A stretch of 64,000 bases of DNA from an uncultured Spirochaetaceae bacterium (GTDB lineage: Bacteria; Spirochaetota; Spirochaetia; JC444; Marispirochaetaceae): positions 10,302 through 74,301 of the forward strand of contig CAZKQJ010000015.1 in assembly GCA_964554875.1 (NCBI GenBank), written 5' to 3'. The notes beneath the pieces are model-generated. The model had not been told where the DNA came from and did no database searches. It worked only from the letters and a program-made list of their open reading frames with translations. Positions 14,270 through 30,937 of this stretch are shown here, in pieces. Made by a program: the position numbers and the translations under genes. Positions within the stretch are counted from its first letter, which is position 1, and every line of letters begins with the position of its first letter.

Positions 14270-15022
14270 ATGAGCATAAACGAAGGCAGCACTCCTGCAG
14301 TACAGAATTACATCCCCTCCAGGGAGTTCATGAAGGGCGCCAGGGATACAATTCCCCTGCTTTTGGGGGCCCTGCCCTTCGGCATGATCTACGGAACCCT
14401 GGCGATAACCGCGGGCTTGAGCAGAGCAGCTGCCATAGGTATGTCCGCCCTGGTTTTCGCGGGTTCGGCCCAGTTTATTGCCGTGGGCCTGATAGCCTCC
14501 GGGACGCCGGTTCTGGTCATTATCGCGACCACTTTTATCGTCAACCTGCGCCACCTGCTCTACAGCACGACCCTGCTCCCCCACCTGAAAAAGCTCCCTG
14601 TAATCTGGCGCATGCCTCTTGCCTTCTGGCTGACGGATGAAACCTTCGCCGTATCGGTCCATCGCTGGATGGCGGAAGACTCTTCCCCCAACAAGCACTG
14701 GTACCAGCTGGGATCCTCCCTTGCCATGTATCTGAACTGGCAGTTCTGGTGCTTCATGGGTCTCGTGCTGGGGGAGAGTATTCCCAATGCAGCCGAATGG
14801 GGACTCGATGTAGCCATGCCGGTTACCTTTATAGGGATGACCATTCCCTTCGTGAAAAACCTGCCCATGCTGGTCTGTGTTTTGACCGCCTCTTTCTGCG
14901 CTCTGGTCTTTAACGGACTCCCCTACAAGGCCGGATTAATGATCGCCTGCGCCCTGGGGATTCTATCCGGGCTGATCAGCGAACGGCTTCGCAGGGCCGG
15001 GAGAAGTGGGAGGCGTATATGA
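14270..15022 (+). CDS. azlC: AzlC family branched-chain amino acid exporter
   Basis: [24 protein letters not shown]. Confidence 0.9.
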
Positions 15023-15348
15023 GCGGTACGGAGCTGACGATCATCCTCGGTATGACCCTGGTCACCTTCGGAATACGGGGACTGATTCTGCTCTTCTCCG
15101 GAAGAATCGAGATATCCGGTGCCTGGGAGAGTGCCCTTGTCTACGTGCCGCCTGCAGTGCTGAGTGCTATAATCGCACCCTCCGTGCTGATGCCCCGGGG
15201 AAGCCTTGATGTCAGTTTCGGGAACTTCTACCTGATCAGCGGATGCGCGGCCCTGATTGCGGGAATCATTTTTCACCGGTATGCCCTGTGGGCGGCCATA
15301 GTAACCGGGCTTGCAGTCTTCGGACTCTACCGCTTTTTCTTGCTCTAG
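15019..15348 (+). CDS. azlD: AzlD family protein
   Basis: [21 protein letters not shown]; ATGA overlap with azlC. Confidence 0.85.
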
Positions 15349-15378: not shown

Positions 15379-16371
15379 GTGAGAGTCATAGACAGCATAG
15401 AAAACAGAGATAGATCAGGCTTCCTGGGCACTGCTCCAATTTTCTCCTCCCTGGGAGCGGAAGAACTCGATTTCATAGCCGGACACTGCGCTCTCTACGA
15501 GTTCGATGTCGGTGAGCACATATATGCTGCAGGCTCCAAAAAGGCGGAGCTCTTTATTCTTGTGGCAGGAAAAGTCGGCATCTATCGGGAAGAAGGTGCT
15601 CTGGCCCGGTTCCTTCCCGGAGAGATATTCGGGGAACTTGGTCTTTTGGCTGACGAGCCCCGGGAGGAACTCGCCATGGCGGAGGAACAGACCCGGATTC
15701 TTATCTTTCCCAGACGGGATGTCTGCTTCCAGGAGATACTCGAATCCAGGCCGGAGCTTTCTTCCCGACTGCTGCGTAAACTCATGGAGTCAGCCGCCTC
15801 CAGGCTGCGTCAGGCCAACCGGCTTATCAAGCAGAATTCTCCCTGGATCCGGGAACTGCGGCACCAGGTCTATACAGACCCCCTGACAGGACTTCCAAAC
15901 CGGACCTATCTGGAAGAAAACCTGGCCGGCTTTTTTTCCTCCCCTCCCTGCGCCCTGCTGATGTTCAAGCCGGATAACTTTAAGCAGATTAACGACAGCT
16001 ACGGGCACGAGGCGGGGGACGCGGCGATCCGGCAAATCGGGCGCTTTCTCTCCCGCATTGCCCTGCCGGAAGAGCGGGTCGTGCGCTTCATGGGCAACGA
16101 ATACGCCCTGATCTGCCCGGAGACAGATATTGAAGAGGCCACACAACGCGCCAGGAAAATACAGAAACTTCAGGGCGCCCTTGATTACGAATACCAGGGC
16201 AAAGCAAACGGCATCGTCGTTACCGTGAGTGCCGGCATCGCCGTCTATCCCAGGCATGCTACGAATGCACCGCGGATCATCGCTCTGGCGCACGGACTGG
16301 CCATGCGGGGGAGGACCATGGGGGGCGGGCAGCTTCTGATCGCTGCCCCGGATGAGGATCAAGCATCATGA
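15379..16371 (+). CDS. cNMP-binding domain + degenerate GGDEF domain protein (MGNEY)
   Basis: FGELGLLADEPR, TDPLTGLPNR, FKQINDSYGHEAGD, RFMGNEY. Confidence 0.9.
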   Translation: MRVIDSIENRDRSGFLGTAPIFSSLGAEELDFIAGHCALYEFDVGEHIYAAGSKKAELFILVAGKVGIYREEGALARFLPGEIFGELGLLADEPREELAMAEEQTRILIFPRRDVCFQEILESRPELSSRLLRKLMESAASRLRQANRLIKQNSPWIRELRHQVYTDPLTGLPNRTYLEENLAGFFSSPPCALLMFKPDNFKQINDSYGHEAGDAAIRQIGRFLSRIALPEERVVRFMGNEYALICPETDIEEATQRARKIQKLQGALDYEYQGKANGIVVTVSAGIAVYPRHATNAPRIIALAHGLAMRGRTMGGGQLLIAAPDEDQAS

Positions 16372-17351
16372 CGGAGAAAGACTTTCTTCGTAGTGTAGAC
16401 ATATTTTCATCCCTCTCTGACGAAGAACTGGAGATTCTCGCGGAGCTGCTGAAGCGCAGTTTCATCAAAAAGGGGGAACTTCTTTTTTCTGAAGGTGATG
16501 ACGGAGAAGAGATGTTCATCGTTGAAAGCGGCAGGATGGGAGTAAACGTGGTCCTCGAAGAGGGAGCAGAACTTGAAGTCGCGAATTTCGGTCCCCGGGA
16601 GTTTTTTGGGGAGATGTCGATCTTCGAGGGAGAACCCCGCTCCGCCAGTTGCAGGGCAAAGGAAGACTGTGAACTCCTCAGCCTGAAAGCGGGAGACTTT
16701 TTCAGCCTTGCAGACCGGCACCCGGAGATGGCAAACAGAATAATGCATCGAATGCTGAATGTGACAGCCCAAAGGCTTCGAAAAACGAACCGCTTTCTGA
16801 CGGAGATGGTCAGCTGGGGGGAATCAGCGAGAAAGCGGGCCGTGAGCGACGATTTAAGCGGCCTGTACAATCGGGGATTCTTCGATGTCAGCCTCAAACG
16901 CACCGTTTCCGAGGCTCTCAGCGCGGGAGAACCACTCTGTCTTGCAATGGCAGATCTCGACGGTTTCGGCCGGCTCAACGCCCTTCACGGCGAGGAAACA
17001 TGCAACCTGGTTATCCGGAAGGCTGCAGAGGTTTTCCGTCAGGGCTTCTCCGACGGGGATATCCTGACCCGTTACGGAGGGGATGAGTTCGCCTTTATTC
17101 TGCCGGGACGAAACTTGCGGGAAGCAAAGGAGTTATGCGATGATATATGCAGAAAGATGCAGTCGCTGGAAATCAAGACGGATCGAAACAGGGAACCTGT
17201 AATACTGAGCACAAGTATCGGGATCGCCGCTCTTTCCGACGGGGTCTTTTTCGGGGAGGATCTGGTCAGGATGGCGGACGAAGCCTTGTACCGGGTCAAG
17301 ACAGCCGGTCGCGGCCGTGCCCTTTGTTACAGCTGGAGAGACAAGGGATGA
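16368..17351 (+). CDS. cNMP-binding domain + GGDEF domain protein
   Basis: FGEMSIFEGEPRSA, DDLSGLYNR, DLDGF, RYGGDEF, ADEALYRVK; ATGA overlap with the upstream gene. Confidence 0.9.
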   Translation: MTEKDFLRSVDIFSSLSDEELEILAELLKRSFIKKGELLFSEGDDGEEMFIVESGRMGVNVVLEEGAELEVANFGPREFFGEMSIFEGEPRSASCRAKEDCELLSLKAGDFFSLADRHPEMANRIMHRMLNVTAQRLRKTNRFLTEMVSWGESARKRAVSDDLSGLYNRGFFDVSLKRTVSEALSAGEPLCLAMADLDGFGRLNALHGEETCNLVIRKAAEVFRQGFSDGDILTRYGGDEFAFILPGRNLREAKELCDDICRKMQSLEIKTDRNREPVILSTSIGIAALSDGVFFGEDLVRMADEALYRVKTAGRGRALCYSWRDKG

Positions 17352-18529
17352 AAAAAAGTGACATTCGGAGCATTGCAGAAAAAAACCGAAGAGTGCAGCA
17401 CATCATCGAAGCGCTGGTCCAGAGCCGAAATGTGCTGGTTCTGGGGCATAAAAACAGCGATGAAGACTGCATCGCCTCCATGGTTGCCATCTCTCTTCTG
17501 GTTAAAAAGCTCAGCAAGAACGTTTCCATACTTCTGACCGAACAGATTCATGAACGCTTTCACTACCTTCTGAACATCTGCCGCTACAATGCCATCAATG
17601 TAATTCCCGACTGCTCCGGAGTGGCTGACGAAATCGATACAATCTGCGTTGTGGATACCCCCAAACCGGAGATGCTGCAAACCTGCGAAGGGGCGGAGAA
17701 ACTGCTTCGCTCTCCCGACATCAGGGTAATCGAGTTCGATCATCATCTGGCGGCGGACTCCGCCTATATCGCCCCCAGGGAGACAGCACTGGTGACAACA
17801 GCTTCATCAACCTGCGAACTGATTGGTTTTCTGGCCCTCAAGATGAGATGCCTTCGCGGCCGTTTCGAGGAGATTGACGGGGAAGACCTCTTCAGCCGGA
17901 ACTTTGTTCTGGCCGTTCTTACCGGAATTGTCGGTGATTCGAAGATGGGAAAGTTCATAAAAAGCCACCGGGAGCGCTGGTTTTACAAGCTCTTCTCTTC
18001 CCGTTTTTCCCGCATGCTCAGCGAAAAGACCCATCAATCTTCATCTAACCTCTCCTCCATGGAAGAAATCTTCAGTGAGATCACCAGACTTTCCCAGCTC
18101 GAGGAGGGCTGTTTCAAATACTTCATGGCCCATAAACAGCATCGCGGATGCATCGCCTATACAATCCTCGATGAAGAGAAGACCAGCCCTCTGCCGGAGG
18201 AGACCGATATGGACCTCTTCGTCTCTACCGCCCGCTCGGTGGCGGATGCCCTGGCGGAGGAGAGCGGCTGTCTGGGGATGGTGGCCTACAATGATCCGCC
18301 GGAGGTCTCGGATCTCGTCCAGTTCCGTATCCGCCGCAGCCACTCCTTCCAGGGTTTCGATCTTCGGGAGATTCTGTCCGCAGCCGGAATCGAGAACGGA
18401 GGAGGCCACGAAGGGGCCATCGGCTTCCGGGTTCCCAAAAGAGAGATCCCGGACATCGGTGTATACTGCCGGCATCTTCTGGACACCATTACTGCTGCGT
18501 TCCCACCACTGCAGGGAAACGTACAATAG
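17348..18529 (+). CDS. DHH/DHHA1 family phosphoesterase
   Basis: HKNSDEDC, VVDT, FDHH, GIVGDS, GGGHEGAIG. True start is the ATG at 17348, overlapping the TGA of the GGDEF gene. Confidence 0.9.
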   Translation: MKKSDIRSIAEKNRRVQHIIEALVQSRNVLVLGHKNSDEDCIASMVAISLLVKKLSKNVSILLTEQIHERFHYLLNICRYNAINVIPDCSGVADEIDTICVVDTPKPEMLQTCEGAEKLLRSPDIRVIEFDHHLAADSAYIAPRETALVTTASSTCELIGFLALKMRCLRGRFEEIDGEDLFSRNFVLAVLTGIVGDSKMGKFIKSHRERWFYKLFSSRFSRMLSEKTHQSSSNLSSMEEIFSEITRLSQLEEGCFKYFMAHKQHRGCIAYTILDEEKTSPLPEETDMDLFVSTARSVADALAEESGCLGMVAYNDPPEVSDLVQFRIRRSHSFQGFDLREILSAAGIENGGGHEGAIGFRVPKREIPDIGVYCRHLLDTITAAFPPLQGNVQ

Positions 18530-18556
18530 CCCCGGAGGGCTGTGGTATACTGGGGT

Positions 18557-19825
18557 ATGAGCACAGCGCCGATCCATCAGGCATTCCCTTCACCAAGACA
18601 CAGACCGCCGGAAGCAAGCAGCCTCTATAAGGCCCCCGAACGGCTTCTATCGGCAATATCTTCCAGAACAGGGCAGATTCCTGCGGTACTGAACATTGTC
18701 GCACCCATTGGATACGGAAAAACGAATCTGGCGGCAGCGGTCTGCCGTTCCCTTTTTTCCAGGAGTATCTGGCTCAGCCTGGCGGAAGGATGTTCCGATG
18801 AGCCGACATTCAAGTCCGACCTGCTTCAGTCATTCCGGGAGGCGGGGATTCTTCCTCCCGGAAATCAGGACTTTAAGGACGTATTTCATCAACAGACACC
18901 TGTCTGCCTGACACTGGACAATCTGCATCTGCTGCCCCGGGGGGCGGCTTCAATTATTACGGAACTCTTCAGCTCCCTGCCGGGGAACAGCCTTATGGTC
19001 CTTTGTTCCGATGAGGATCACAGCTTTCCGCTTTCACGTCTCAGAATCGACGATCGTGTTCTGGAGATTCGCATCGAAGATTTAACGGCCACAAAAGAAG
19101 AGATCGCAGCTTTTTTTGTCCGTCTCGGATCCTCTCCTTCGGATGATGAACTGGAGATTCTTCTGCAGAAGACCGGGGGATGGTGGGCCTGTATACGGCT
19201 TTTTGCAATAGGCTGGCGACAACTCGATGCTGCCGGCAGAAAAGGGTTCTTAAGCCGGTTCAGGGCCACGGACCGCTTTATACGGGAGTTCCTGACAGAA
19301 AACATCGATGCCCATCTTTCTCCGGAACAGCTGGATTTTTTAAGGACTGTTTCCATCTGCACCCATATCAGGACGGAACTTGCCGCGCAGCTTTGTAGCC
19401 ACATGGAGGCTCCGATCCGGCCCCTGGTACAGGATCTTCTTACCCGCTACATTCTGCTTCCAACCGGTCACGGATGGTATCGACTTCCGGTCATTCTTAA
19501 ACAGCACTACTACGCCGACCTCGACAGAAGCAGCCGTGAAAAACTGCACCGCAGGGCAGCCGAATGGTTCCAGCTGCAGCAGATGCCGAAACTGGCATCC
19601 CATCATCTTCAAAGAGCAGGAATAGAGTCTCCCCTGGCCCCGAGGGAAACGGAGATTCTCCTCCAGGCGGCCCAGGGGCTCAGCAATGCGGAGATCGGTG
19701 AACGCCTTTTTATAAGCCAGGGAACGGTAAAGTGGCACATGAACAGAATCCTGGAAAAGCTTGACTGCAGCAACCGGACTGCTGCAGTTGAAACCGCCAG
19801 AAGAAACGGATTCATCTCCGGTTGA
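18557..19825 (+). CDS. Short MalT-like STAND ATPase / LuxR-HTH transcriptional regulator
   Basis: Walker A APIGYGKT, LTLDNLH, TGGW, C-terminal RETEIL...GLSNAEIGERLFISQGTVKWH. Confidence 0.85.
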   Translation: MSTAPIHQAFPSPRHRPPEASSLYKAPERLLSAISSRTGQIPAVLNIVAPIGYGKTNLAAAVCRSLFSRSIWLSLAEGCSDEPTFKSDLLQSFREAGILPPGNQDFKDVFHQQTPVCLTLDNLHLLPRGAASIITELFSSLPGNSLMVLCSDEDHSFPLSRLRIDDRVLEIRIEDLTATKEEIAAFFVRLGSSPSDDELEILLQKTGGWWACIRLFAIGWRQLDAAGRKGFLSRFRATDRFIREFLTENIDAHLSPEQLDFLRTVSICTHIRTELAAQLCSHMEAPIRPLVQDLLTRYILLPTGHGWYRLPVILKQHYYADLDRSSREKLHRRAAEWFQLQQMPKLASHHLQRAGIESPLAPRETEILLQAAQGLSNAEIGERLFISQGTVKWHMNRILEKLDCSNRTAAVETARRNGFISG

Positions 19826-19915: not shown

Positions 19916-20161
19916 ATGAACGCCAATCGCAAACGGTCCTATCAAATTCTCGCAGAGGGAACAATAACACGGATTGAGGATGAACGGCTTTCAGCCTGGA
20001 ATTTCCAGGCCCTTGGAGACGGAAAGACCCTCATGACCGGTCCGCAAGTTGACAGTTCAGCCCTCTACGGAATTCTTTCGGCCCTGCGGGACAGCGGAAT
20101 CGTACTCCTGGGAATCAAGGAAGTAAAACCAACCAACAGATCGGAAGGAGACAGAAGATGA
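19916..20161 (+). CDS. Small hypothetical protein (ACT-like pattern YQI...T.MTG..VDSSALYGIL..LRD.GIVLL)
   Basis: ORF with an upstream purine-rich RBS; resembles small proteins I recall next to MalT-like regulators; TGA overlaps the next ATG. Confidence 0.7.
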   Translation: MNANRKRSYQILAEGTITRIEDERLSAWNFQALGDGKTLMTGPQVDSSALYGILSALRDSGIVLLGIKEVKPTNRSEGDRR

Positions 20162-22602
20162 ACCGTACATTTTTTATTGCTGCATGTATTGCAGCCATAT
20201 CACTGCTGGCAGGCTGCGCGAGCTTTAACGGGGCCATCCCCATCGAGAGCGATGCCCCTGAGACGTTCCATATTTCACCCAAAAATGCTGATGGAATCAA
20301 GGACAGCCTGACAATACCAGTGGATTTTCCCGAGATAAAGGGGCTGACAATCTCTTCCTATGAATATTCAATCCGACGGGACGACGGCACTGCGTTCTAC
20401 AGCTATTCTGAACAGGCGGCCCGGCCCCCATGGTATAAACGGATTATCGGGGCGAAAGCGGCGGTTAAACTTCCCCGGGAAATTGTCTGGGACGGTCGGA
20501 GCGACACGGGCGATTTCGCTCCGGACGGGCACTACTACATGCTCATCCGTGCGGAGGATACAAAAGGCAACCGGGGAGAAGCCCGGCCTTTTACGGTAAT
20601 CGTGGACGATACGCCTCCGTCCGTGAACGTCATGCTTCCCTATACCGTGTTTTCTCCCAACGCCGATAACAACCGTGATACCCTGGACATCTATTTTCAG
20701 GACCCTTCTCTTGAAGAGACCTGGGAAGCCCGGATTCGCAAAAGCGAAGGAACCCCGGTATTCGATTACAGCTGGCAGGAATTCCCCATTGATATCCGAT
20801 GGGACGGCAAAACTGAAAGCGGAGAGCTCATGGAAGATGGTGAGTATATATTCTCGGTAAGTTCCACAGATCTGGCGGGCAACAGCTTCAGCTGGGAAAG
20901 CGGGCTTCTGTTAAAGGAATCCGCCCTGCCCCCCATTTCGGCGAGGCTCTCGGATACAATACTCTCACCCAACGGAGACGGAATAAAGGATACGGTCATG
21001 CTGTATCTCGATGCCGAAACTCCGGACCGGATTGTAAGGGCAGGGATTTCAGTTATCGGTAAGAACGGCATCAGTCTGGCCAGTCTTCCGGCGCCCTCAA
21101 GCTACCCGACAACAGTGACCATAACCGGAATCCTGGAAAACGGCCGTCCCATTCCCGACGGTATCTATTATATCCGGTTCAACGTGGAATACCGCAACGG
21201 AGCCACTCCCTCCACAGTGACCCCTCCCCTCCTCATTGACACAGCTCCCCCATCTGCAGTCGTCAGCGTCGATTACCGGCTCTTCTCTCCTGACGGCGAC
21301 GGTCGCAGGGACGATCTGAACTTTTACCAGAGCAGCGAAGAAGCTGTTGCCTGGAGCGGGACCATAACTGATCAGAGCGGCCGTACGGTTTTTCGTCGCG
21401 ATTTCGGTTCCCGGGCCTCCGGTTTCAGCTGGAACGGCCGGGACTCCCTTGGCAACTCCATTCCCGACGGGGTCTACACATATACCCTCCAGGGAACGGA
21501 TGAGGCCGGCAACAGGGCTCTCCGGCGGATTGACGGCATCCGCATCGATACCAGGCCCACCCCGGTGGCACTGCGTTCCATGGATACCAGCTTCAGTCCC
21601 AACGGGGACGGAATAACCGAAACCGCCCGGTTTACCCCGGTAATAGAGATTACCGAAGGAATCAGTTCATGGCTCTTTGAGATAACCGACAGCCGGGATA
21701 CCGCAGTCTACACCCTTTCCGGAAACAGCTATGACGATCTTCCCCGCACCCTTCTGTGGACCGGTGAAGGGGCTCCCGAAGGTCTTTACGGCGGACGCCT
21801 GACCGCAGAATATGAAAAGGGGAATATCGCTGTTACAGTCAGTCCCGAAAAGGTTGCATTGGATATCAGCGGTCCGGGAATCAATGCCCAGGTAACTCCT
21901 CTTCCCTTCGGGCCCGACGGAGACGGGTTTAACGACAGACTGATGATCAAAATCATCGTCGAAGATCCTTCCGGTGTCATTCTCCGGGAAGCCGAAATCC
22001 TCGATCCCGCTGGGAACTCCTTCCTTCGCCTGCCTGCAGCCGCCTTTACCGCCGCAGGTTGGTCCTGGGACGGAAAATCCGCCTCAGGAGAGCTGGTGCA
22101 GTCCGCCTCGGACTATACCCTCAGGGTGCAATCCAGGGATACCGTGGGAAACGAAAGCCGGTACGAACTGTCCATTCCGGTGGATATTCTGGTAATCCGT
22201 GACGGGGACCGTTTGAAAATCAGCATTTCCAGCATTTACTTCAAACCGAACACTCCCGACTATATTAATGTGGAGCCTGAGACCGCCAGGCGGAACCTCG
22301 CTACCCTGGACAGGCTGGCGGAAATTCTCAAAAAGTATTCTGACTACCGCATCAGGCTCGAAGGCCACGGCGTGCGTATCTACTGGGATCAGCCGCAGCG
22401 ATGGCCCGGGGAGGAAACCGAGGTGCTGGTTCCCCTTTCCCGGGCCCGGGCAGAGGCTATCCGGGCCGCCCTCAGTTCACGGGGCGTAAAACCGGAGCGT
22501 ATGAGCATAGAGGGCTTCGGCGGGTACCGGCCGGTGGTTCCCCATGGTGATCTGGATAACCGCTGGAAAAACCGGCGAGTGGAATTCATCCTGGTTAAAT
22601 AA
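20158..22602 (+). CDS. Large lipoprotein with repeated FlgD-Ig/FSPNGDG modules and a C-terminal OmpA-like peptidoglycan-binding domain
   Basis: Lipobox LLAGC; repeated (F/I/L)SP(N/D/K)xDG and W(D/N)G motifs; IRLEGH, LSRARAEAIR, NRRVEF. Confidence 0.85.
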   Translation: MNRTFFIAACIAAISLLAGCASFNGAIPIESDAPETFHISPKNADGIKDSLTIPVDFPEIKGLTISSYEYSIRRDDGTAFYSYSEQAARPPWYKRIIGAKAAVKLPREIVWDGRSDTGDFAPDGHYYMLIRAEDTKGNRGEARPFTVIVDDTPPSVNVMLPYTVFSPNADNNRDTLDIYFQDPSLEETWEARIRKSEGTPVFDYSWQEFPIDIRWDGKTESGELMEDGEYIFSVSSTDLAGNSFSWESGLLLKESALPPISARLSDTILSPNGDGIKDTVMLYLDAETPDRIVRAGISVIGKNGISLASLPAPSSYPTTVTITGILENGRPIPDGIYYIRFNVEYRNGATPSTVTPPLLIDTAPPSAVVSVDYRLFSPDGDGRRDDLNFYQSSEEAVAWSGTITDQSGRTVFRRDFGSRASGFSWNGRDSLGNSIPDGVYTYTLQGTDEAGNRALRRIDGIRIDTRPTPVALRSMDTSFSPNGDGITETARFTPVIEITEGISSWLFEITDSRDTAVYTLSGNSYDDLPRTLLWTGEGAPEGLYGGRLTAEYEKGNIAVTVSPEKVALDISGPGINAQVTPLPFGPDGDGFNDRLMIKIIVEDPSGVILREAEILDPAGNSFLRLPAAAFTAAGWSWDGKSASGELVQSASDYTLRVQSRDTVGNESRYELSIPVDILVIRDGDRLKISISSIYFKPNTPDYINVEPETARRNLATLDRLAEILKKYSDYRIRLEGHGVRIYWDQPQRWPGEETEVLVPLSRARAEAIRAALSSRGVKPERMSIEGFGGYRPVVPHGDLDNRWKNRRVEFILVK

Positions 22603-25813: not shown

Positions 25814-27349
25814 ATGAAGCTCAGCCGGAAGATATCTCTTTTTATTATCCTCATACTGATTTTTACTGTTTTTATTACCTCCTTCTTTTTTCTCAGCCAG
25901 TGGCTCGACTCCCTCCGCTTTCAGATGCGCAGCCAGGCCATGGACCTGGCGGAAACCCTGAGCAGGGCGTCACAGATCCGGGTGAACATCGGCAGCCCCA
26001 ACGGAGACATTATCATACAGCGGGAGATGGAGCGGATCCGTCTGCATACCCGCATCCAGTCAATCCAGATTGTGAATGTCGAAGGACTCATCTACGCCCA
26101 CTCCCTGGAGTCGGAAATTCGGAAAAAGACGGATAATCACCTGCTAATGACCGTCCTGGAAAGCGGTGAGGCAGCCAGACGGGAGGAACAAAGCCTGACC
26201 GCTCCTTCTTTTCAGGCAGCAGCCCCGATCTATCACCGGGGGATTCTCGCAGGCGCCGTGCTGGTGGAGCTTTTTTACGGACGGATTTACCAGGAAAACC
26301 GCCGCAACATCATGATAATCGCCGCAGTTGCCCTTTTTACCCTGGCCTGCGGGATTTTTCTGGCCCGGCTCCTGTCGACAAACATCAAGCAGAGTATCTT
26401 CGGTCTTGAACCGGTGGAGATAGCCCGCCTCCTTACCCAGCAGGATCTTATCCTTTCCAGCTTTGACCTGGGAGTGGTTTTTTCCAACCGGGACGGTTCG
26501 ACGAGCATGATCAACCCCGCAGCGCGAAAACTTCTGGGGCTCTCACCGGAGGAGAAGGATTTCCGCATCGGTTCCCCCGGCGAAGGGCCCAGGGAGTACC
26601 AGAGCAGAAACGGACGGGTACTCCTTTGCCGCAGCTATCCGGTAATCGATCACCACAGAGAAGAAGCGGGACGGGTGACCGTCTTTGAGGACCTGACGGA
26701 GGCCCGGCGACGGGCTGAAGAGCTTACCGGAATGCGCCAGCTGACCAGCGCCCTCAGGGCCCAGAACCATGAATTCCTGAACAAGCTCCACAGCATTTCC
26801 GGCCTGATTCAATTGAAGGAGTACGACGAGGCCCTGCGCTTTATCTCCGATGCCGCGGGCCACCGGGGAGAGCTTACCGCGGTTCTGACCCGCCGGATAC
26901 AGGAGCCTGCCATAGCGGGACTCCTGTTGTCAAAATACAACCGTGCAGCAGAGGCACGTATCGCCGTCACTATCGACGAAGAATCATCTCTTTCATCATC
27001 GTCTCCTGTTATTTCTCCCCAGGACCTGTCCACCATCCTGGGAAACCTGCTGGAAAACGCTTACGAGGAACTCAGGGGAAAAGAGGGAGGAGAGATATTC
27101 ATCGGTATCTACGAGGGGGAGAGTTCCCTGCAATGCTGCGTGGAAGATAACGGCCGGGGTATTCCCTCCCATATCCGGGAAAGCCTTTTTCAGCGGGGAG
27201 TATCCACCAAAGGGGAGTCCCGGGGAATCGGGCTTGCTCTTGTAAAGGAGATAATCGACCGTTTGGGCGGGACGATTCAGATAGACGGAGTCCACGGCAC
27301 CTCGGTGGACCTGGACATTCCCGCTTCGAAGGAGAAGCAGGCAAGATGA
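25814..27349 (+). CDS. CitA/DcuS-family sensor histidine kinase
   Basis: Two TM helices around an sCache-like domain; LRAQNHEFLNKLH; ILGNLLENA, EDNGRGI, GVSTKG, GIGL. An alternative start lies at 25784. Confidence 0.92.
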   Translation: MKLSRKISLFIILILIFTVFITSFFFLSQWLDSLRFQMRSQAMDLAETLSRASQIRVNIGSPNGDIIIQREMERIRLHTRIQSIQIVNVEGLIYAHSLESEIRKKTDNHLLMTVLESGEAARREEQSLTAPSFQAAAPIYHRGILAGAVLVELFYGRIYQENRRNIMIIAAVALFTLACGIFLARLLSTNIKQSIFGLEPVEIARLLTQQDLILSSFDLGVVFSNRDGSTSMINPAARKLLGLSPEEKDFRIGSPGEGPREYQSRNGRVLLCRSYPVIDHHREEAGRVTVFEDLTEARRRAEELTGMRQLTSALRAQNHEFLNKLHSISGLIQLKEYDEALRFISDAAGHRGELTAVLTRRIQEPAIAGLLLSKYNRAAEARIAVTIDEESSLSSSSPVISPQDLSTILGNLLENAYEELRGKEGGEIFIGIYEGESSLQCCVEDNGRGIPSHIRESLFQRGVSTKGESRGIGLALVKEIIDRLGGTIQIDGVHGTSVDLDIPASKEKQAR

Positions 27350-28029
27350 ATATCCTCATCCTGGAAGACGATCCCATGGTCAGTTCCATAACCAGCCGCT
27401 TTCTGAGGCAGATAGACTCAGGGTTCCATCCCGTATGCGCCGGCACCATCGATGAGGCCCACAGGCTCTGCGAAGAACAAAAGTTCGATCTTATGCTTGT
27501 GGACGTCTACTTCCCTGATAAAACAGGGGTGGAGTTTCTCCAGAAAGAACGGGCACAGGGGAACCCTGCAGTGGCGATCATGATAACCGCGGACAAAACT
27601 CCCCATACGGTTGAGCAGACCCTGGCACTGGGAGCGGTGGACTATCTGATAAAACCCTTTGAGTTCCAGCGTTTCAGCGAAGCCGTCCTTCGGGCAAGGG
27701 AACGCATATCCAGGATTCATGGATCAGGGAGCTCAGACTTCGACCAGAGGCAGCTGGATAGTCTGATTATACCGGAAAAGCGGAAACCGGCAGATTCGCT
27801 TCCGGAAAAAGGAATGGGAGCCCAGACCTACAGCATGGTAAAAGAGATTATAGAAAAACACGAAGACGACTTCAGTGCCCGGGACATCGCCGAAGAGGCA
27901 GGCCTTGCCAGGGTTACGGTGCGGCGCTACCTTGAGGGCATGCTCGCCGAAGGACTGCTTGAAATGTCTCCGGTCTACGGCCATGTGGGAAGGCCAATGC
28001 ACCGGTACCGCAGGAGCCGGGAACAATGA
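27346..28029 (+). CDS. CitB/DcuR-family response regulator
   Basis: LEDD, LVDVYFPD, LIKPF, GLARVTVRRYL, YGHVGRP. Confidence 0.92.
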   Translation: MNILILEDDPMVSSITSRFLRQIDSGFHPVCAGTIDEAHRLCEEQKFDLMLVDVYFPDKTGVEFLQKERAQGNPAVAIMITADKTPHTVEQTLALGAVDYLIKPFEFQRFSEAVLRARERISRIHGSGSSDFDQRQLDSLIIPEKRKPADSLPEKGMGAQTYSMVKEIIEKHEDDFSARDIAEEAGLARVTVRRYLEGMLAEGLLEMSPVYGHVGRPMHRYRRSREQ

Positions 28030-29435
28030 ACGTACGGAGGCTTTTGACTCCCCTGGCAGCAGGACTCCTCCTGGCGGGGATCTTCTTCCTTATGAGCCGG
28101 CCGGAAAAGTATGACGTGCTGGTCGTTGGCGCCGGGGCCGCCGGTCTTTTCGCCGCTCTGGAGGCAGAGGAACAGGGTGCATCGGTCATGGTCATCGAAA
28201 AGATGCCCACCATCGGAGGCAACACCATCCGCGCGACAGGCGGTATGAACGCCGCCGAGTCTGAAATACAGGAAAAACTGAATATTGACGACAGCCTGGA
28301 ATCCCACCTGAAGGATACCCTGCAGGCGGGGCACAGGACCAACGATTCCGTTCTGGCGAAGATACTTGTAGAGCAGGCCAGGGAAGCGGTAAGCCGTCTC
28401 CGGTCCCTTGGAGCGGATCTTGAAGACGTGGGCTACCTCGCCGGCCACAGTGCGCCGAGGACCCACCGGCCCACCGGGGGAGCCCCCGTGGGAACCGAAA
28501 TCATACGGGTCCTGAAAGATGCCCTCAAGAAAAGGAATATTCCCATTCGGCTGGAGACACGAATAATCAGTCTTATCAGGAAGAAAGGAGTCGTCCGGGG
28601 CGCTCTTGTGCGGGACAAGACCGGAAGAGAATACCGGATACTCAGCTCCGCTCTTGTTCTGGCTACCGGGGGTTACGGCGGCAGTCCCCGAACCTTCGTC
28701 CGCTACAATCCGGCCTTGACAGGATTCAATACCACCAACCATCCCGGTGCAACAGGGGATTACATCCCCCTGGCTGAAGAGATCGGCGCCCGACTGGTGG
28801 ACATGGACCAGATCCAGGCCCATCCCACGGTGGAACCCGACCACGGAGTATTGATAACCGAGGCCCTGCGTGGAAACGGAGGAATCCTCGTTGACCTGAT
28901 GGGGCGGCGCTTTACCGACGAGCTGGCCTTCCGGGATATTCTGAGCGCGAAGATTCTGGAGCGGCGTAACGGAATAGCCTATCTTATCTTCGATGACAAG
29001 GTCCGCAGGTCCCTTTCGGCGGCGGAAAACTATATTCACCGTAACCTGGTGGTCAGCGCGAATACCCCGGAAGAACTCGCCGGCAAACTGGGTATTGATC
29101 CGCCCCTCTTTTCCGCGGAACTTGAAAGCTACAACAGGGTGCACAGGTCCGGCGAAACAGACCTCTACGGCAGAAGCGGGATCAGCATAGCCCTGGAGAC
29201 TCCCCCCTATTACGGCATAAAGGTCTCGCCGGGGGTACACTACTGTATGGGGGGCCTGGCTATCGACGATCGGACCCGGGTACTGAGGGACTCCGACGGA
29301 AAGCCGATCCCGGGCCTGTATGCTGCCGGAGAGTCCACGGGGGGCATTCACGGGAGCAACCGCCTGGGAGGCAACTCCCTTGCTGACGCGGTGATATTCG
29401 GACGCATTGCCGGCCGCGAGGCGGCGGGAAAATAA
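28026..29435 (+). CDS. Second flavocytochrome-c/fumarate-reductase-family FAD protein, N-terminal membrane anchor, no FMN domain
   Basis: Hydrophobic N-terminus, GAGAAG, QAHPT, TEALRG, FRD, HYCMGG, NRLGG; ATGA overlap with the regulator gene. Confidence 0.88.
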   Translation: MNVRRLLTPLAAGLLLAGIFFLMSRPEKYDVLVVGAGAAGLFAALEAEEQGASVMVIEKMPTIGGNTIRATGGMNAAESEIQEKLNIDDSLESHLKDTLQAGHRTNDSVLAKILVEQAREAVSRLRSLGADLEDVGYLAGHSAPRTHRPTGGAPVGTEIIRVLKDALKKRNIPIRLETRIISLIRKKGVVRGALVRDKTGREYRILSSALVLATGGYGGSPRTFVRYNPALTGFNTTNHPGATGDYIPLAEEIGARLVDMDQIQAHPTVEPDHGVLITEALRGNGGILVDLMGRRFTDELAFRDILSAKILERRNGIAYLIFDDKVRRSLSAAENYIHRNLVVSANTPEELAGKLGIDPPLFSAELESYNRVHRSGETDLYGRSGISIALETPPYYGIKVSPGVHYCMGGLAIDDRTRVLRDSDGKPIPGLYAAGESTGGIHGSNRLGGNSLADAVIFGRIAGREAAGK

Positions 29436-29440
29436 ATAGG

Positions 29441-30937
29441 CTACTCTTCGGATGTGGCGTAGTCGAGGATAATCTCCTTGGTCGCCTCATCCCGGGGCAG
29501 GTCGCAGGCAATCCGGCCGCCGGCAAGCACCAGGACACGATCGCACATGCCGAGGATCTCTTCGATTTCCGAGGAAATCAGAATAACCGAGGCGCCTTTG
29601 CCGACAAGATCGTTTATGGAGTTGTATATATCCACTTTGGCCGCGGCGTCCACTCCCCGGGTCGGTTCATCCATTATGTAGATCCCCGCCCTGCACATGA
29701 AGGAACGGGACAGAAGCACCTTCTGCTGATTGCCTCCGGAATAGAAGCGCAATATGTCCTTGAACTGTCCCGGGACAATACCCAGACGCCGGATATATTC
29801 CCCCGTAAGCTGGCGCATGTAGAGCTCGTTCAAAGCCAGGCTGTTCAGAAAGCGCGGCAGGGTCGCGATAGTCAGATTGGTTATCAGGTTCAGGGGTGGA
29901 AATATGCCGTTCTCCGACCGGTTTTCCGGCACCAGGATTACCCCGTGCTGCATGGCATCAAGGGGATGATTGAAGCTGACCTGCTTTCCGTGAAGAAGTA
30001 TCTCTCCCCCGGTAAATTGGGCAAGACCGAAAAGGCAGTTGCTTAACAGTGTTCTTCCGGAACCCATAAGCCCGGTTATCCCAAGAATTTCCTGTTTGCG
30101 CAGGGAAAAGGATACGGAATGGAGTATCGGTTCGCTGGAGAGCCCTTTTACCTCCAGAATCGTCCCGCCGGGGTGCAGGGATAGGCGGGGATAGCGTTCC
30201 CGGTGGGGGTCCTCGATCATCATCCCCACCAGGGTGCTTTTGTCGATCTCGTTGACCCGGCTGGTTGATACGATCCGGCCCTTGTGAATTACCGTAACCC
30301 TGTCTCCCACCCGTTTTATCTCGTCCATCCTGTGGGAAATGTAGAAAACCCCCTCCACCCGCTCTTTTAACTCCTCGAGTATCGTGAAAAAGAGGTTTCG
30401 CTCGATCTCCCCCATGGCAGCGGTGGGCTCGTCGAAAATTACAACCTCCGCTCCGGAAACATAGGCTTTTACCGCCGAAAGAAGCTGTCGTTCCGCGTAG
30501 CCCAGGCGGTTTACCCGCATGCCCGGATTAAAGTCGATGCCGAAGTACCTCAGAAGCTCCGCGCATTCGAGTTCGGTACGGGCCCGGCTGAAGTAACGGC
30601 ACAGACGCCCCTCCCGGGCATAACGGTCAAAGAAAACATTCTCCGCCACACTCAGATTTCCGAAAAGCTGATTGTCCTGGTGCTGATAGAAAATTCCCCC
30701 CTTGCGGGCGGCATGGAAGGATTCAAACTCAATCTCCTCGCCCTTCAGACGAATGGAACCGGAATCCCGTGAATAGAGGCCGCTTACGATCTTCATAAGA
30801 GCCGATTTGCCGGAACCGTTCTCCCCTATTATTACGTGGACCTCCCCCGGAAGCAGATCCAGATTAATGGAGTCCAGAAGAAACTCGTTGTCGAAGTTCT
30901 TACTGATATTTTCCAGTACCAGCAGCGGAGAACTCAC
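29441..30937 (-). CDS. Sugar ABC transporter ATP-binding protein (RbsA/MglA-type, two NBDs)
   Basis: [37 protein letters not shown]. Confidence 0.9.
   Translation of the reverse strand: MSSPLLVLENISKNFDNEFLLDSINLDLLPGEVHVIIGENGSGKSALMKIVSGLYSRDSGSIRLKGEEIEFESFHAARKGGIFYQHQDNQLFGNLSVAENVFFDRYAREGRLCRYFSRARTELECAELLRYFGIDFNPGMRVNRLGYAERQLLSAVKAYVSGAEVVIFDEPTAAMGEIERNLFFTILEELKERVEGVFYISHRMDEIKRVGDRVTVIHKGRIVSTSRVNEIDKSTLVGMMIEDPHRERYPRLSLHPGGTILEVKGLSSEPILHSVSFSLRKQEILGITGLMGSGRTLLSNCLFGLAQFTGGEILLHGKQVSFNHPLDAMQHGVILVPENRSENGIFPPLNLITNLTIATLPRFLNSLALNELYMRQLTGEYIRRLGIVPGQFKDILRFYSGGNQQKVLLSRSFMCRAGIYIMDEPTRGVDAAAKVDIYNSINDLVGKGASVILISSEIEEILGMCDRVLVLAGGRIACDLPRDEATKEIILDYATSEE

Follow-up and report, generated by a model that had tools for sequence, protein, structure and literature searches.

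Known systems and the P1-P2-P3 locus

The nearest characterized protein to the system described here is XC_0249 of Xanthomonas campestris, a single diguanylate cyclase that combines a cyclic nucleoside monophosphate-binding (cNMP) domain with a GGDEF domain and is enhanced by cyclic GMP (cGMP) (PMC3770947). A comparable arrangement is present in a 64,000-nucleotide stretch of DNA, here called the window, from an uncultured Spirochaetaceae bacterium (assembly GCA_964554875.1, contig CAZKQJ010000015.1, positions 10,302 to 74,301). Two overlapping genes, P1 and P2, each encode a cNMP domain, a helical linker and a GGDEF or GGDEF-like domain, and a third gene, P3, encodes a DHH/DHHA1 phosphoesterase. 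As in XC_0249, the cNMP domain precedes the GGDEF domain, and a cyclic mononucleotide would control the GGDEF output. XC_0249, however, is the product of a single gene, has a canonical site, is presumably a homodimer and has neither a rebuilt paralogue nor a DHH/DHHA1 partner. The architecture of P1 and P2 and their ATGA overlap had been read from the sequence alone, and both are confirmed by the open reading frames, the Pfam matches and the sequence itself. This sequence-only reading was right about the coupling of P1 to P2 but treated the locus as a two-gene unit, and missed P3, which follows P2 across a second ATGA junction (Table 1).

Canonical homodimeric diguanylate cyclases such as PleD, WspR, DgcZ and IsPadC have the GGDEF fold in common with P1 and P2, and likewise a helical linker between the sensor and the GGDEF domain. 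Like P2, they possess D327, GGDEF, K442, R446 and R300. The PleD numbering used here was already that of the sequence-only reading and is supported by the spacing of the motifs and by an ungapped phmmer match between residues 152-317 of P2 and residues 282-447 of 1w25. In contrast to P1 and P2, the half-sites of the canonical enzymes are identical and both catalytic, whereas P1 has Lys327 and xGNE and P2 is without K332. The Hypr GGDEF enzymes GacA and Bd0367 resemble the P2 of the window in that residue 344 is changed and the GGDEF motif has its central Asp (PMC6456294). However, they are homodimers with Ser or Thr at 344, while the P2 of the window has Asn and most of its orthologues have Asp. 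Membership of P2 in the Hypr group was rejected because of this Asn and because Ser or Thr occurs at 344 in no orthologue.

GdpP, a phosphodiesterase for cyclic di-AMP (c-di-AMP), resembles the P2-P3 fusions of related loci in having a GGDEF-type domain directly before DHH/DHHA1, and its catalytic domain matches the fold of P3. It differs in being membrane-anchored and in possessing a PAS domain and a degenerate, ATP-binding GGDEF domain, in contrast to P2, which has an intact GGDEF domain and an obligatory GGDEF paralogue. The proteins of the locus have neither a transmembrane segment nor a PAS domain; their sensor is of the cNMP type, and in the window P2 and P3 are encoded separately. In the literature searched, which covered few papers from subscription journals, no heteromeric or heterodimeric GGDEF enzyme and no spirochaete module of cNMP-GGDEF proteins with a DHH protein was found.

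P1 and P2 as an obligate pair

A pattern scan of species-representative genomes returned 379 loci with a relative of P1. The locus counts given below refer to the best 80 of these 379, all of which belong to the Spirochaetota or to unclassified metagenome-assembled genomes. Wherever the DNA continues, P1 is followed directly by P2 on the same strand (80/80). The pairing was also followed in an even set of 151 Spirochaetia genomes, in which orthologues were called at set cut-offs. P2 orthologues are present in 47 of these genomes and P1 orthologues in 43, and the module occurs in about 30% of the sample. All discordances between the two are accounted for, either by contig ends (G023, G061, G100 and G148) or by a P1 that is divergent but adjacent (G015 and G051). 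An obligate partnership, which the sequence-only reading had proposed and which turns on whether homologues occur without the partner, is upheld by these counts.

The genes are also closely joined. Among 75 loci in which P1 and P2 are not fused, the junction is a 4-nt overlap in 29, another overlap in 16 and a gap of no more than 20 nt in 25, for a total of 70. P1-P2 proteins that are naturally a single chain of 642-673 aa make up over 40 clusters (90% identity) and keep the same asymmetry. In a tree of 58 P1, 58 P2 and 6 outgroup rows, the P1 rows all lie on one side of a single branch and the P2 rows likewise of another, each with a value of 99 in the Shimodaira-Hasegawa-like approximate likelihood ratio test. 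P1 and P2 each form a single clade, which indicates that one duplication predated the divergence of these lineages. Judged from the tree, the gene order and the junctions, P1 and P2 are paralogues of ancient origin, invariably co-inherited, translationally coupled and, in one clade, fused. On the same grounds, the two together are an obligate and ancient module of the Spirochaetia.

A P1 profile run against 1.84 billion representative proteins found more than 110 clusters (50% identity) with the signature KPDxFK...GH..GD. The organism is a Marispirochaeta, and the P1 of the window is 79% identical to a hypothetical protein of M. aestuarii. In one genus, a second P2-like gene with 32-33% identity is located on another contig (G058:C302:1215-2162 and G125:C66:897-1847). 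A divergent module at locus L031 (G015:C1:2141500-2150600) possesses a P2 reading frame of 471 aa that runs on through ~110 N-terminal residues of P3, with the remainder of P3 in a separate reading frame, which could reflect a frameshift or a broken fusion.

The active site of P1

The P1 and P2 motifs quoted in the sequence-only reading were all found at the places given for them. Residues at the PleD positions were tallied in 128 unique P1/P2 pairs. In P1, position 327, which is the metal-binding Asp in PleD, is Lys in 128/128, and position 328, an Ile in PleD, is Pro in 128/128. K332, N335, D336, G339, H340, G343 and D344 are each retained in every pair. The metal ligand at position 370 is replaced by Asn in 123 pairs, so that the usual motif is xGNE instead of GGDEF, and the general base Glu371 is kept in 121. 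Lys442 has become Arg in 126 pairs and Arg446 has become Gly in 122, while position 300 is variable (Arg in 66, Lys in 38 and other residues in 24).

The P1 of the window follows this pattern. It retains the nucleotide-reading residues K202, N205, D206, H210 and D214 but lacks two features of a catalytic half-site, namely the metal Asp327 and a GG[D/E]EF motif, for which it has MGNEY. Where the RxxD inhibitory site would be, P1 has LPEE. The P1 pattern is not one of random decay, because 128 independent pairs show the same substitutions with few or no exceptions. Instead, the tallies indicate that the site was rebuilt and then frozen.

The active site of P2

The metal-binding Asp327 (D196 in the window) and the trans-acting R300 (R169) are present in P2 in all 128 pairs, and the GGDEF motif, with Asp370 and Glu371, in 127/127. 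Both triphosphate clamps are widely conserved, with K442 (K311 in the window) in 123 pairs and position 446 (R315) as Arg in 116 and Lys in 7. N335 is Asn in 123/128, D344 is Asp in 117 and Asn in 10, G339 is Gly in 78 and G343 is Gly in 104. Position 328 is Leu in 93, Met in 26 and another residue in 9. By comparison, K332 has been lost in 125/128, where the position is mostly Gly (56) or Arg (48), otherwise Asn (10) or His (7), with Lys in 3. Position 336 is variable and its Asp mostly lost. H340 is His in 43 pairs, 39 of which belong to the P1-P2 fusion clade, and otherwise Gln or Glu. Of the 128 P2 orthologues, 72-79 retain the RxxD motif, which lies five residues ahead of GGDEF.

The P2 of the window diverges more than the family norm. 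Of the guanine-reading residues it has N204, with Asn213 instead of Asp344, and of the phosphate-binding residues K311 and R315, with Gly at position 332. Its Asn344 (as 'CN') and the SDGD that replaces RxxD are limited to Marispirochaeta and a few other lineages.

These tallies alter the earlier picture of a mirror-image loss of residues in the two proteins. The P1 half of that picture is family-wide, but P2 as a family keeps N335 and D344, and its characteristic losses are instead K332 and, for the most part, D336 and H340. The comparison with adenylate cyclase C1/C2 domains, in which P1 and P2 would be split parts of one complete site, is also inexact, as P2 is better described as a nearly complete donor and P1 as an acceptor-only pocket. 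Moreover, one whole site cannot be assembled from two half-defective chains, because the residues that read the base and those that bind the metals for one nucleoside triphosphate (NTP) are on the same chain. The idea that complementary loss creates one complete site was rejected on both the mechanism and the family-wide tallies.

P2 varies between clades. In the P1-P2 fusion clade (P0001-P0040), which is without P3, all members have Arg at position 332 and keep H340. Of the 54 loci with an adjacent P3, 40 have Gly at position 332 and 39 have Glu or Gln at position 340. This may hint that the presence of P3 goes with a changed phosphate pocket in P2. When position 300 of P1 was cross-tabulated against positions 332, 340 and 344 of P2, only clade-wise patterns and no usable covariation appeared. 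Weak Pfam matches of the P2 half of the fusion to the Cas10 palm2 and GdpP GGDEF models were discarded as general homology.

The DHH/DHHA1 partner P3

P3 matches the Pfam DHH family with 50 bits (cut-off 28.1), and its DHHA1 match of 20.7 bits is below the cut-off of 25.9. Against the curated NCBIfam models, no family cut-off was reached. The best match, to a GdpP-like 'signalling protein' model, scores 31 bits where 707 are required, and NrnA 18.6 where 350 are required. As it falls short of every curated family, P3 is a separate, new subfamily. Its AlphaFold2 (AF2) model has a mean predicted local distance difference test score (pLDDT) of 86.5 and a predicted template modeling score (pTM) of 0.81. 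In Foldseek, the top structural matches are the stand-alone phosphodiesterases of dinucleotides and nanoRNA, namely TmPDE (TM1595, solved with 5'-pApA and GMP), Borrelia DhhP, NrnA/Pde2 and Rv2837c, and the catalytic domain of GdpP, with E-values of 1e-17 to 1e-12 for TmPDE, DhhP, NrnA and GdpP; family II pyrophosphatases and RecJ rank behind these. The DHH, GGGH and Arg-rich motifs of these phosphodiesterases are found in P3 as well, and all of 51 orthologues carry its DxD, DHH, GGGH and RxRR motifs. P3 is an NrnA/GdpP-type enzyme with its catalytic motifs complete. P3 differs from the known enzymes in its low identity to them (15-18%), in a helical insert of ~60 residues and in being tied to P1 and P2. 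Based on the fold and motifs, P3 likely hydrolyzes a linear or cyclic dinucleotide, which would suit an eraser of the P1/P2 product.

The genomic distribution also connects P3 with the pair. The position of P3 relative to P2 could be judged at 68 loci: 25 have P3 as a C-terminal extension of P2, 29 have it as the gene directly after P2, and at 14 the two are non-adjacent. In the class sample, P3 orthologues are present in 46 of the 47 genomes with P2 and elsewhere only in G131 and G141, which have no detectable P1 or P2. In four genomes of one Spirochaetia family (G039, G066, G111 and G150), P3 is unlinked yet retained, 0.5-1.5 Mb from P1-P2. By this distribution, P3 belongs to the same module as P1 and P2. 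Elsewhere in the genome of the window, another DHH-family gene (G000:C42, 27944-28372, minus strand; region 26919-29987) is located between GGDEF genes at 26919-27377 and 29520-29987.

Cyclic mononucleotide inputs and genome context

Both N-terminal domains are recognized by Pfam as cNMP-binding (P1, E 1.8e-13 and 50.7 bits; P2, E 9.8e-25 and 86.8 bits), and both C-terminal domains exceed the gathering cut-off of 23.8 for GGDEF (PF00990; P1, E 3.7e-29 and 102 bits; P2, E 3.4e-33 and 115 bits). In the phosphate-binding cassette of P2, FGE...PRSA, the G, the E and R-S-A are invariant in 128/128 pairs. The cassette of P1 is FGE...PREE in the window and G-E...R-[T/N]-A in most orthologues. Because of the PREE, ligand binding by the cNMP domain of the window P1 is uncertain, and P2, with its invariant cassette, is the safer candidate here for sensing cyclic AMP (cAMP) or cGMP. 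A cNMP input to the module is plausible. By domain content, the genome has a full toolkit for both cyclic di-GMP (c-di-GMP) and cNMP signaling, with 27 GGDEF, 7 EAL, 10 PilZ and 7 DHH matches and 7 class III cyclase domains.

A proposed mechanism and its alternatives

In GGDEF dimers, the 3'-OH in one half-site is activated by the fourth GGDEF residue of the opposite chain, which acts as general base, and the residue equivalent to R300 likewise reaches across the dimer (PMC6456294). In PleD, the Mg is held by D327, E370 and the carbonyl of I328 (bioRxiv 10.1101/2025.08.22.671821; PMC7288161), the side chain of K332 binds the beta-phosphate, R300 of the partner contacts the nucleotide and H340 is near the 3' position (bioRxiv 10.1101/2025.08.22.671821). 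Catalysis by diguanylate cyclases is taken to involve K332 (PMC6629876). The linear dinucleotide pppGpG is a real intermediate and is released by some of these enzymes (PMC6005682). The GGDEF active site of PleD also accommodates (p)ppGpp (bioRxiv 10.1101/2025.08.22.671821).

With about an even chance of being correct, P1 and P2 are proposed to form an asymmetric heteromer in which P2 is the sole catalytic half-site, P1 is a metal-free acceptor or sensor of guanine nucleotides and P3 is the eraser. The two proteins would dimerize through their linkers and GGDEF domains, and P1 would hold a guanine nucleotide without metal. Glu240 of P2 would then deprotonate in trans the 3'-OH of this nucleotide, which would attack the alpha-phosphate of the Mg-NTP in P2. 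One bond would be catalyzed efficiently per encounter to give a pppGpG-type product, and closure to c-di-GMP would require a flip of the intermediate or P2:P2 pairing within a higher oligomer. Binding of cAMP or cGMP to both N-terminal domains would gate the pairing of P1 and P2. With hydrolysis of the product by P3, the module would consist of a writer and an eraser.

This proposal places each residue in a defined role. The residues needed to attack the P2-bound NTP, D196, D239, E240, K311 and R315, are all on P2. From their PleD counterparts, N205, D214, H210 and K202 of P1, together with R169 of P2 in trans, are assigned to presenting the guanine nucleotide and its 3'-OH. The reverse bond is disfavored because it would need metals in P1, where Lys is found instead. 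Likewise, the asymmetry of donor and acceptor would explain why R300 is fixed in P2 alone and H340 in P1 alone. One efficient bond per encounter is plausible: it is mechanistically coherent and fits the published in-trans general base (PMC6456294).

Paired homologous palm-type domains with metal ligands on only one of them also occur in the C1/C2 adenylate cyclases and in Cas10 Palm1/Palm2, where the other domain holds a ligand or the acceptor nucleotide, and flipping of a linear intermediate in a single site is known from cGAS-type enzymes. C1/C2 and Cas10 are different families, and the C1/C2 site spans the interface, whereas each GGDEF chain binds its own NTP. By analogy, P1:P2 could be a GGDEF heterodimer with a single catalytic site, resembling Cas10 Palm1/Palm2 or cGAS, with P1 as fixed acceptor and P2 as fixed donor. 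The product would be linear pppGpG (pppGpN in Asn344 lineages such as that of the window) or a short linear or cyclic oligo-G. Under the control of cAMP or cGMP, it would serve as a second messenger other than c-di-GMP, and a dedicated nanoRNase-like P3 would remove it. This more specific form of the proposal is considered unlikely.

Several observations weigh against the asymmetric heteromer. Glu371 is kept in 95% of P1 proteins, where it appears superfluous for a strict one-bond model. The RxxD motif of many P2 orthologues suggests that c-di-GMP is a relevant ligand or product, and without K332 P2 itself may turn over slowly. Since homodimers are the rule among DHH/DHHA1 enzymes, two P2 domains may be joined in P2-P3 fusions. 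Furthermore, P3 is not universal: the only P2-bearing genome of the class sample without it, G019, is a member of the P1-P2 fusion clade, and two more members of this clade have no P3 nearby. Finally, the AF2 model of the natural fusion P0001, built from a naturally paired alignment of 39 rows, has confident individual domains (pLDDT 82.5) but gave no confident arrangement of them (pTM 0.49).

Some of these points suit a different view, in which P1 is a regulatory pseudoenzyme. It would sense GTP, (p)ppGpp, pGpG or c-di-GMP without catalysis, and would bind P2 or sequester it in unproductive heterodimers. Ordinary synthesis of c-di-GMP would then be performed by P2:P2 within a P1(2)P2(2)(P3(2)) complex, and P3 would clear pGpG or c-di-GMP. 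GTP-sensing degenerate GGDEF domains are known, for example in Caulobacter PdeA/CC3396, and (p)ppGpp can occupy the GGDEF site of PleD. P2 possesses every canonical catalytic residue except K332 and often RxxD, the P2-P3 fusions probably dimerize through the DHH domain like the NrnA/GdpP folds, and the genome has complete c-di-GMP machinery. Nevertheless, a purely regulatory P1 leaves unexplained why the trans-acting Arg300 is invariant in P2 and free in P1, why H340 and K332 are absolute in P1 and lost in P2, and why a 1:1 stoichiometry is fixed through coupling and fusion. Such a role for P1 is possible, although on the doubtful side.

It is quite improbable that hydrolysis of c-di-AMP, nanoRNA or pGpG by P3 is the only output, with both GGDEF domains serving, as in GdpP, as NTP-binding regulators that relay the cNMP or NTP status. 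The order of sensor, GGDEF and DHH/DHHA1 in the P2-P3 fusions does parallel GdpP, the fold of P3 matches the catalytic domain of GdpP and Borrelia DhhP, and the best NCBIfam match of P3, though far under its cut-off, is the GdpP-like model. However, P2 retains D327 and GGDEF without exception and K442 and R446 (Arg in 116) in nearly all pairs, unlike GdpP, and the genome encodes several other DHH proteins. In addition, the existence of a P1-P2 fusion clade without P3 argues for an independent role of the pair. That P1 and P2 are merely co-regulated paralogues acting as independent homodimers is barely credible. Genomes rich in GGDEF domains, such as this one, often carry tandem paralogues, but co-occurrence in both directions across the class, the fixed gene order, the coupling and the fusion clade all speak for a joint function, and a homodimer of P1 would be without any metal site.

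Features of the locus and neighboring genes

Table 1. Positions within the window of the P1, P2 and P3 genes, their domains and motifs
Feature	Position	Strand	Remarks
P1 gene	15379..16371	+	GTG start, 330 aa; cNMP-binding domain, helical linker, GGDEF-like domain with rebuilt metal-less site
P2 gene	16368..17351	+	ATG start, 327 aa; cNMP-binding domain, helical linker, GGDEF domain with full catalytic set minus K332
P3 gene	17348..18529	+	393 aa; DHH/DHHA1 phosphoesterase, NrnA/TmPDE/DhhP/GdpP fold, ~60-residue helical insert
ATGA, P1 stop/P2 start	16368..16371	+	Start codon inside stop codon; translational coupling
ATGA, P2 stop/P3 start	17348..17351	+	Second start-in-stop junction; P2-P3 a single polypeptide in 25 related loci
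P1 cNMP-binding domain	15502..15720	+	Residues 42-114; Pfam
P1 GGDEF-like domain	15871..16293	+	Residues 165-305; hidden Markov model match
P1 motif KPDNFKQINDSYGHEAGD	15967..16020	+	Residues 197-214; Lys197 at position of metal Asp327
P1 MGNEY at GGDEF position	16090..16104	+	Residues 238-242; Asn for metal ligand 370, Glu371 kept
P1 motif AHGLAMRGRTMGGG	residues 304-317	+	Helix position of ADxALYxAK, lost in P1
P2 cNMP-binding domain	16464..16721	+	Residues 33-118; canonical FGE...PRSA cassette
P2 GGDEF domain	16842..17315	+	Residues 159-316; Pfam
P2 motif DLDGFGRLNALHGEETCN	16953..17006	+	Residues 196-213; Asp196 and Asn204 kept; K332 to Gly, D336 to Ala, H340 to Glu, D344 to Asn
P2 SDGD at position of RxxD inhibitory site	17049..17060	+	RxxD lost in P2 of the window
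P2 GGDEF motif	17076..17090	+	Residues 237-241; Asp239 metal ligand, Glu240 general base
P2 motif ADEALYRVKTAGRGR	residues 303-317	+	Helix position of ADxALYxAK, kept in P2
P3 DHH motif	17738..17746	+	Residues 131-133; invariant in 51 orthologues
P3 GGGH motif	18398..18409	+	Residues 351-354; RxRR at residues 327-330 likewise invariant

Upstream of P1, on the same strand, is a pair of genes with overlapping stop and start for the branched-chain amino-acid exporter AzlC/AzlD (14270-15348), which ends 30 nt before P1 and is conserved in this position only within the genus Marispirochaeta. A gene for a MalT/LuxR-type regulator with AAA_16 and GerE domains (18542-19825, plus strand) starts 12 nt past the stop of P3. 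It is placed outside the conserved module because homologues were found only at L013 and L014, which belong to the two closest Marispirochaeta relatives. Clustering of all flanking reading frames of the 80 loci revealed no further conserved partner. Farther downstream (20158-22602, plus strand) is a gene for a lipoprotein-like protein of 814 aa with many repeated Ig-like segments containing SPNGDG and an OmpA-like C-terminal end.

Implications

GGDEF enzymes are usually viewed as symmetric homodimers and degenerate GGDEF domains as decayed receptors. In the P1-P2 pair, a whole bacterial class has kept two paralogues in which one half-site was rebuilt under strong purifying selection and the chemistry appears to have been left to the other. 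The pair offers an experiment of nature on the making of both phosphodiester bonds of c-di-GMP, and on the linear intermediate as a possible output in its own right. The module would also link the sensing of cAMP or cGMP, GGDEF chemistry and a new subfamily of DHH/DHHA1 proteins. As P1, P2 and P3 are three small soluble proteins, these possibilities can be tested directly.

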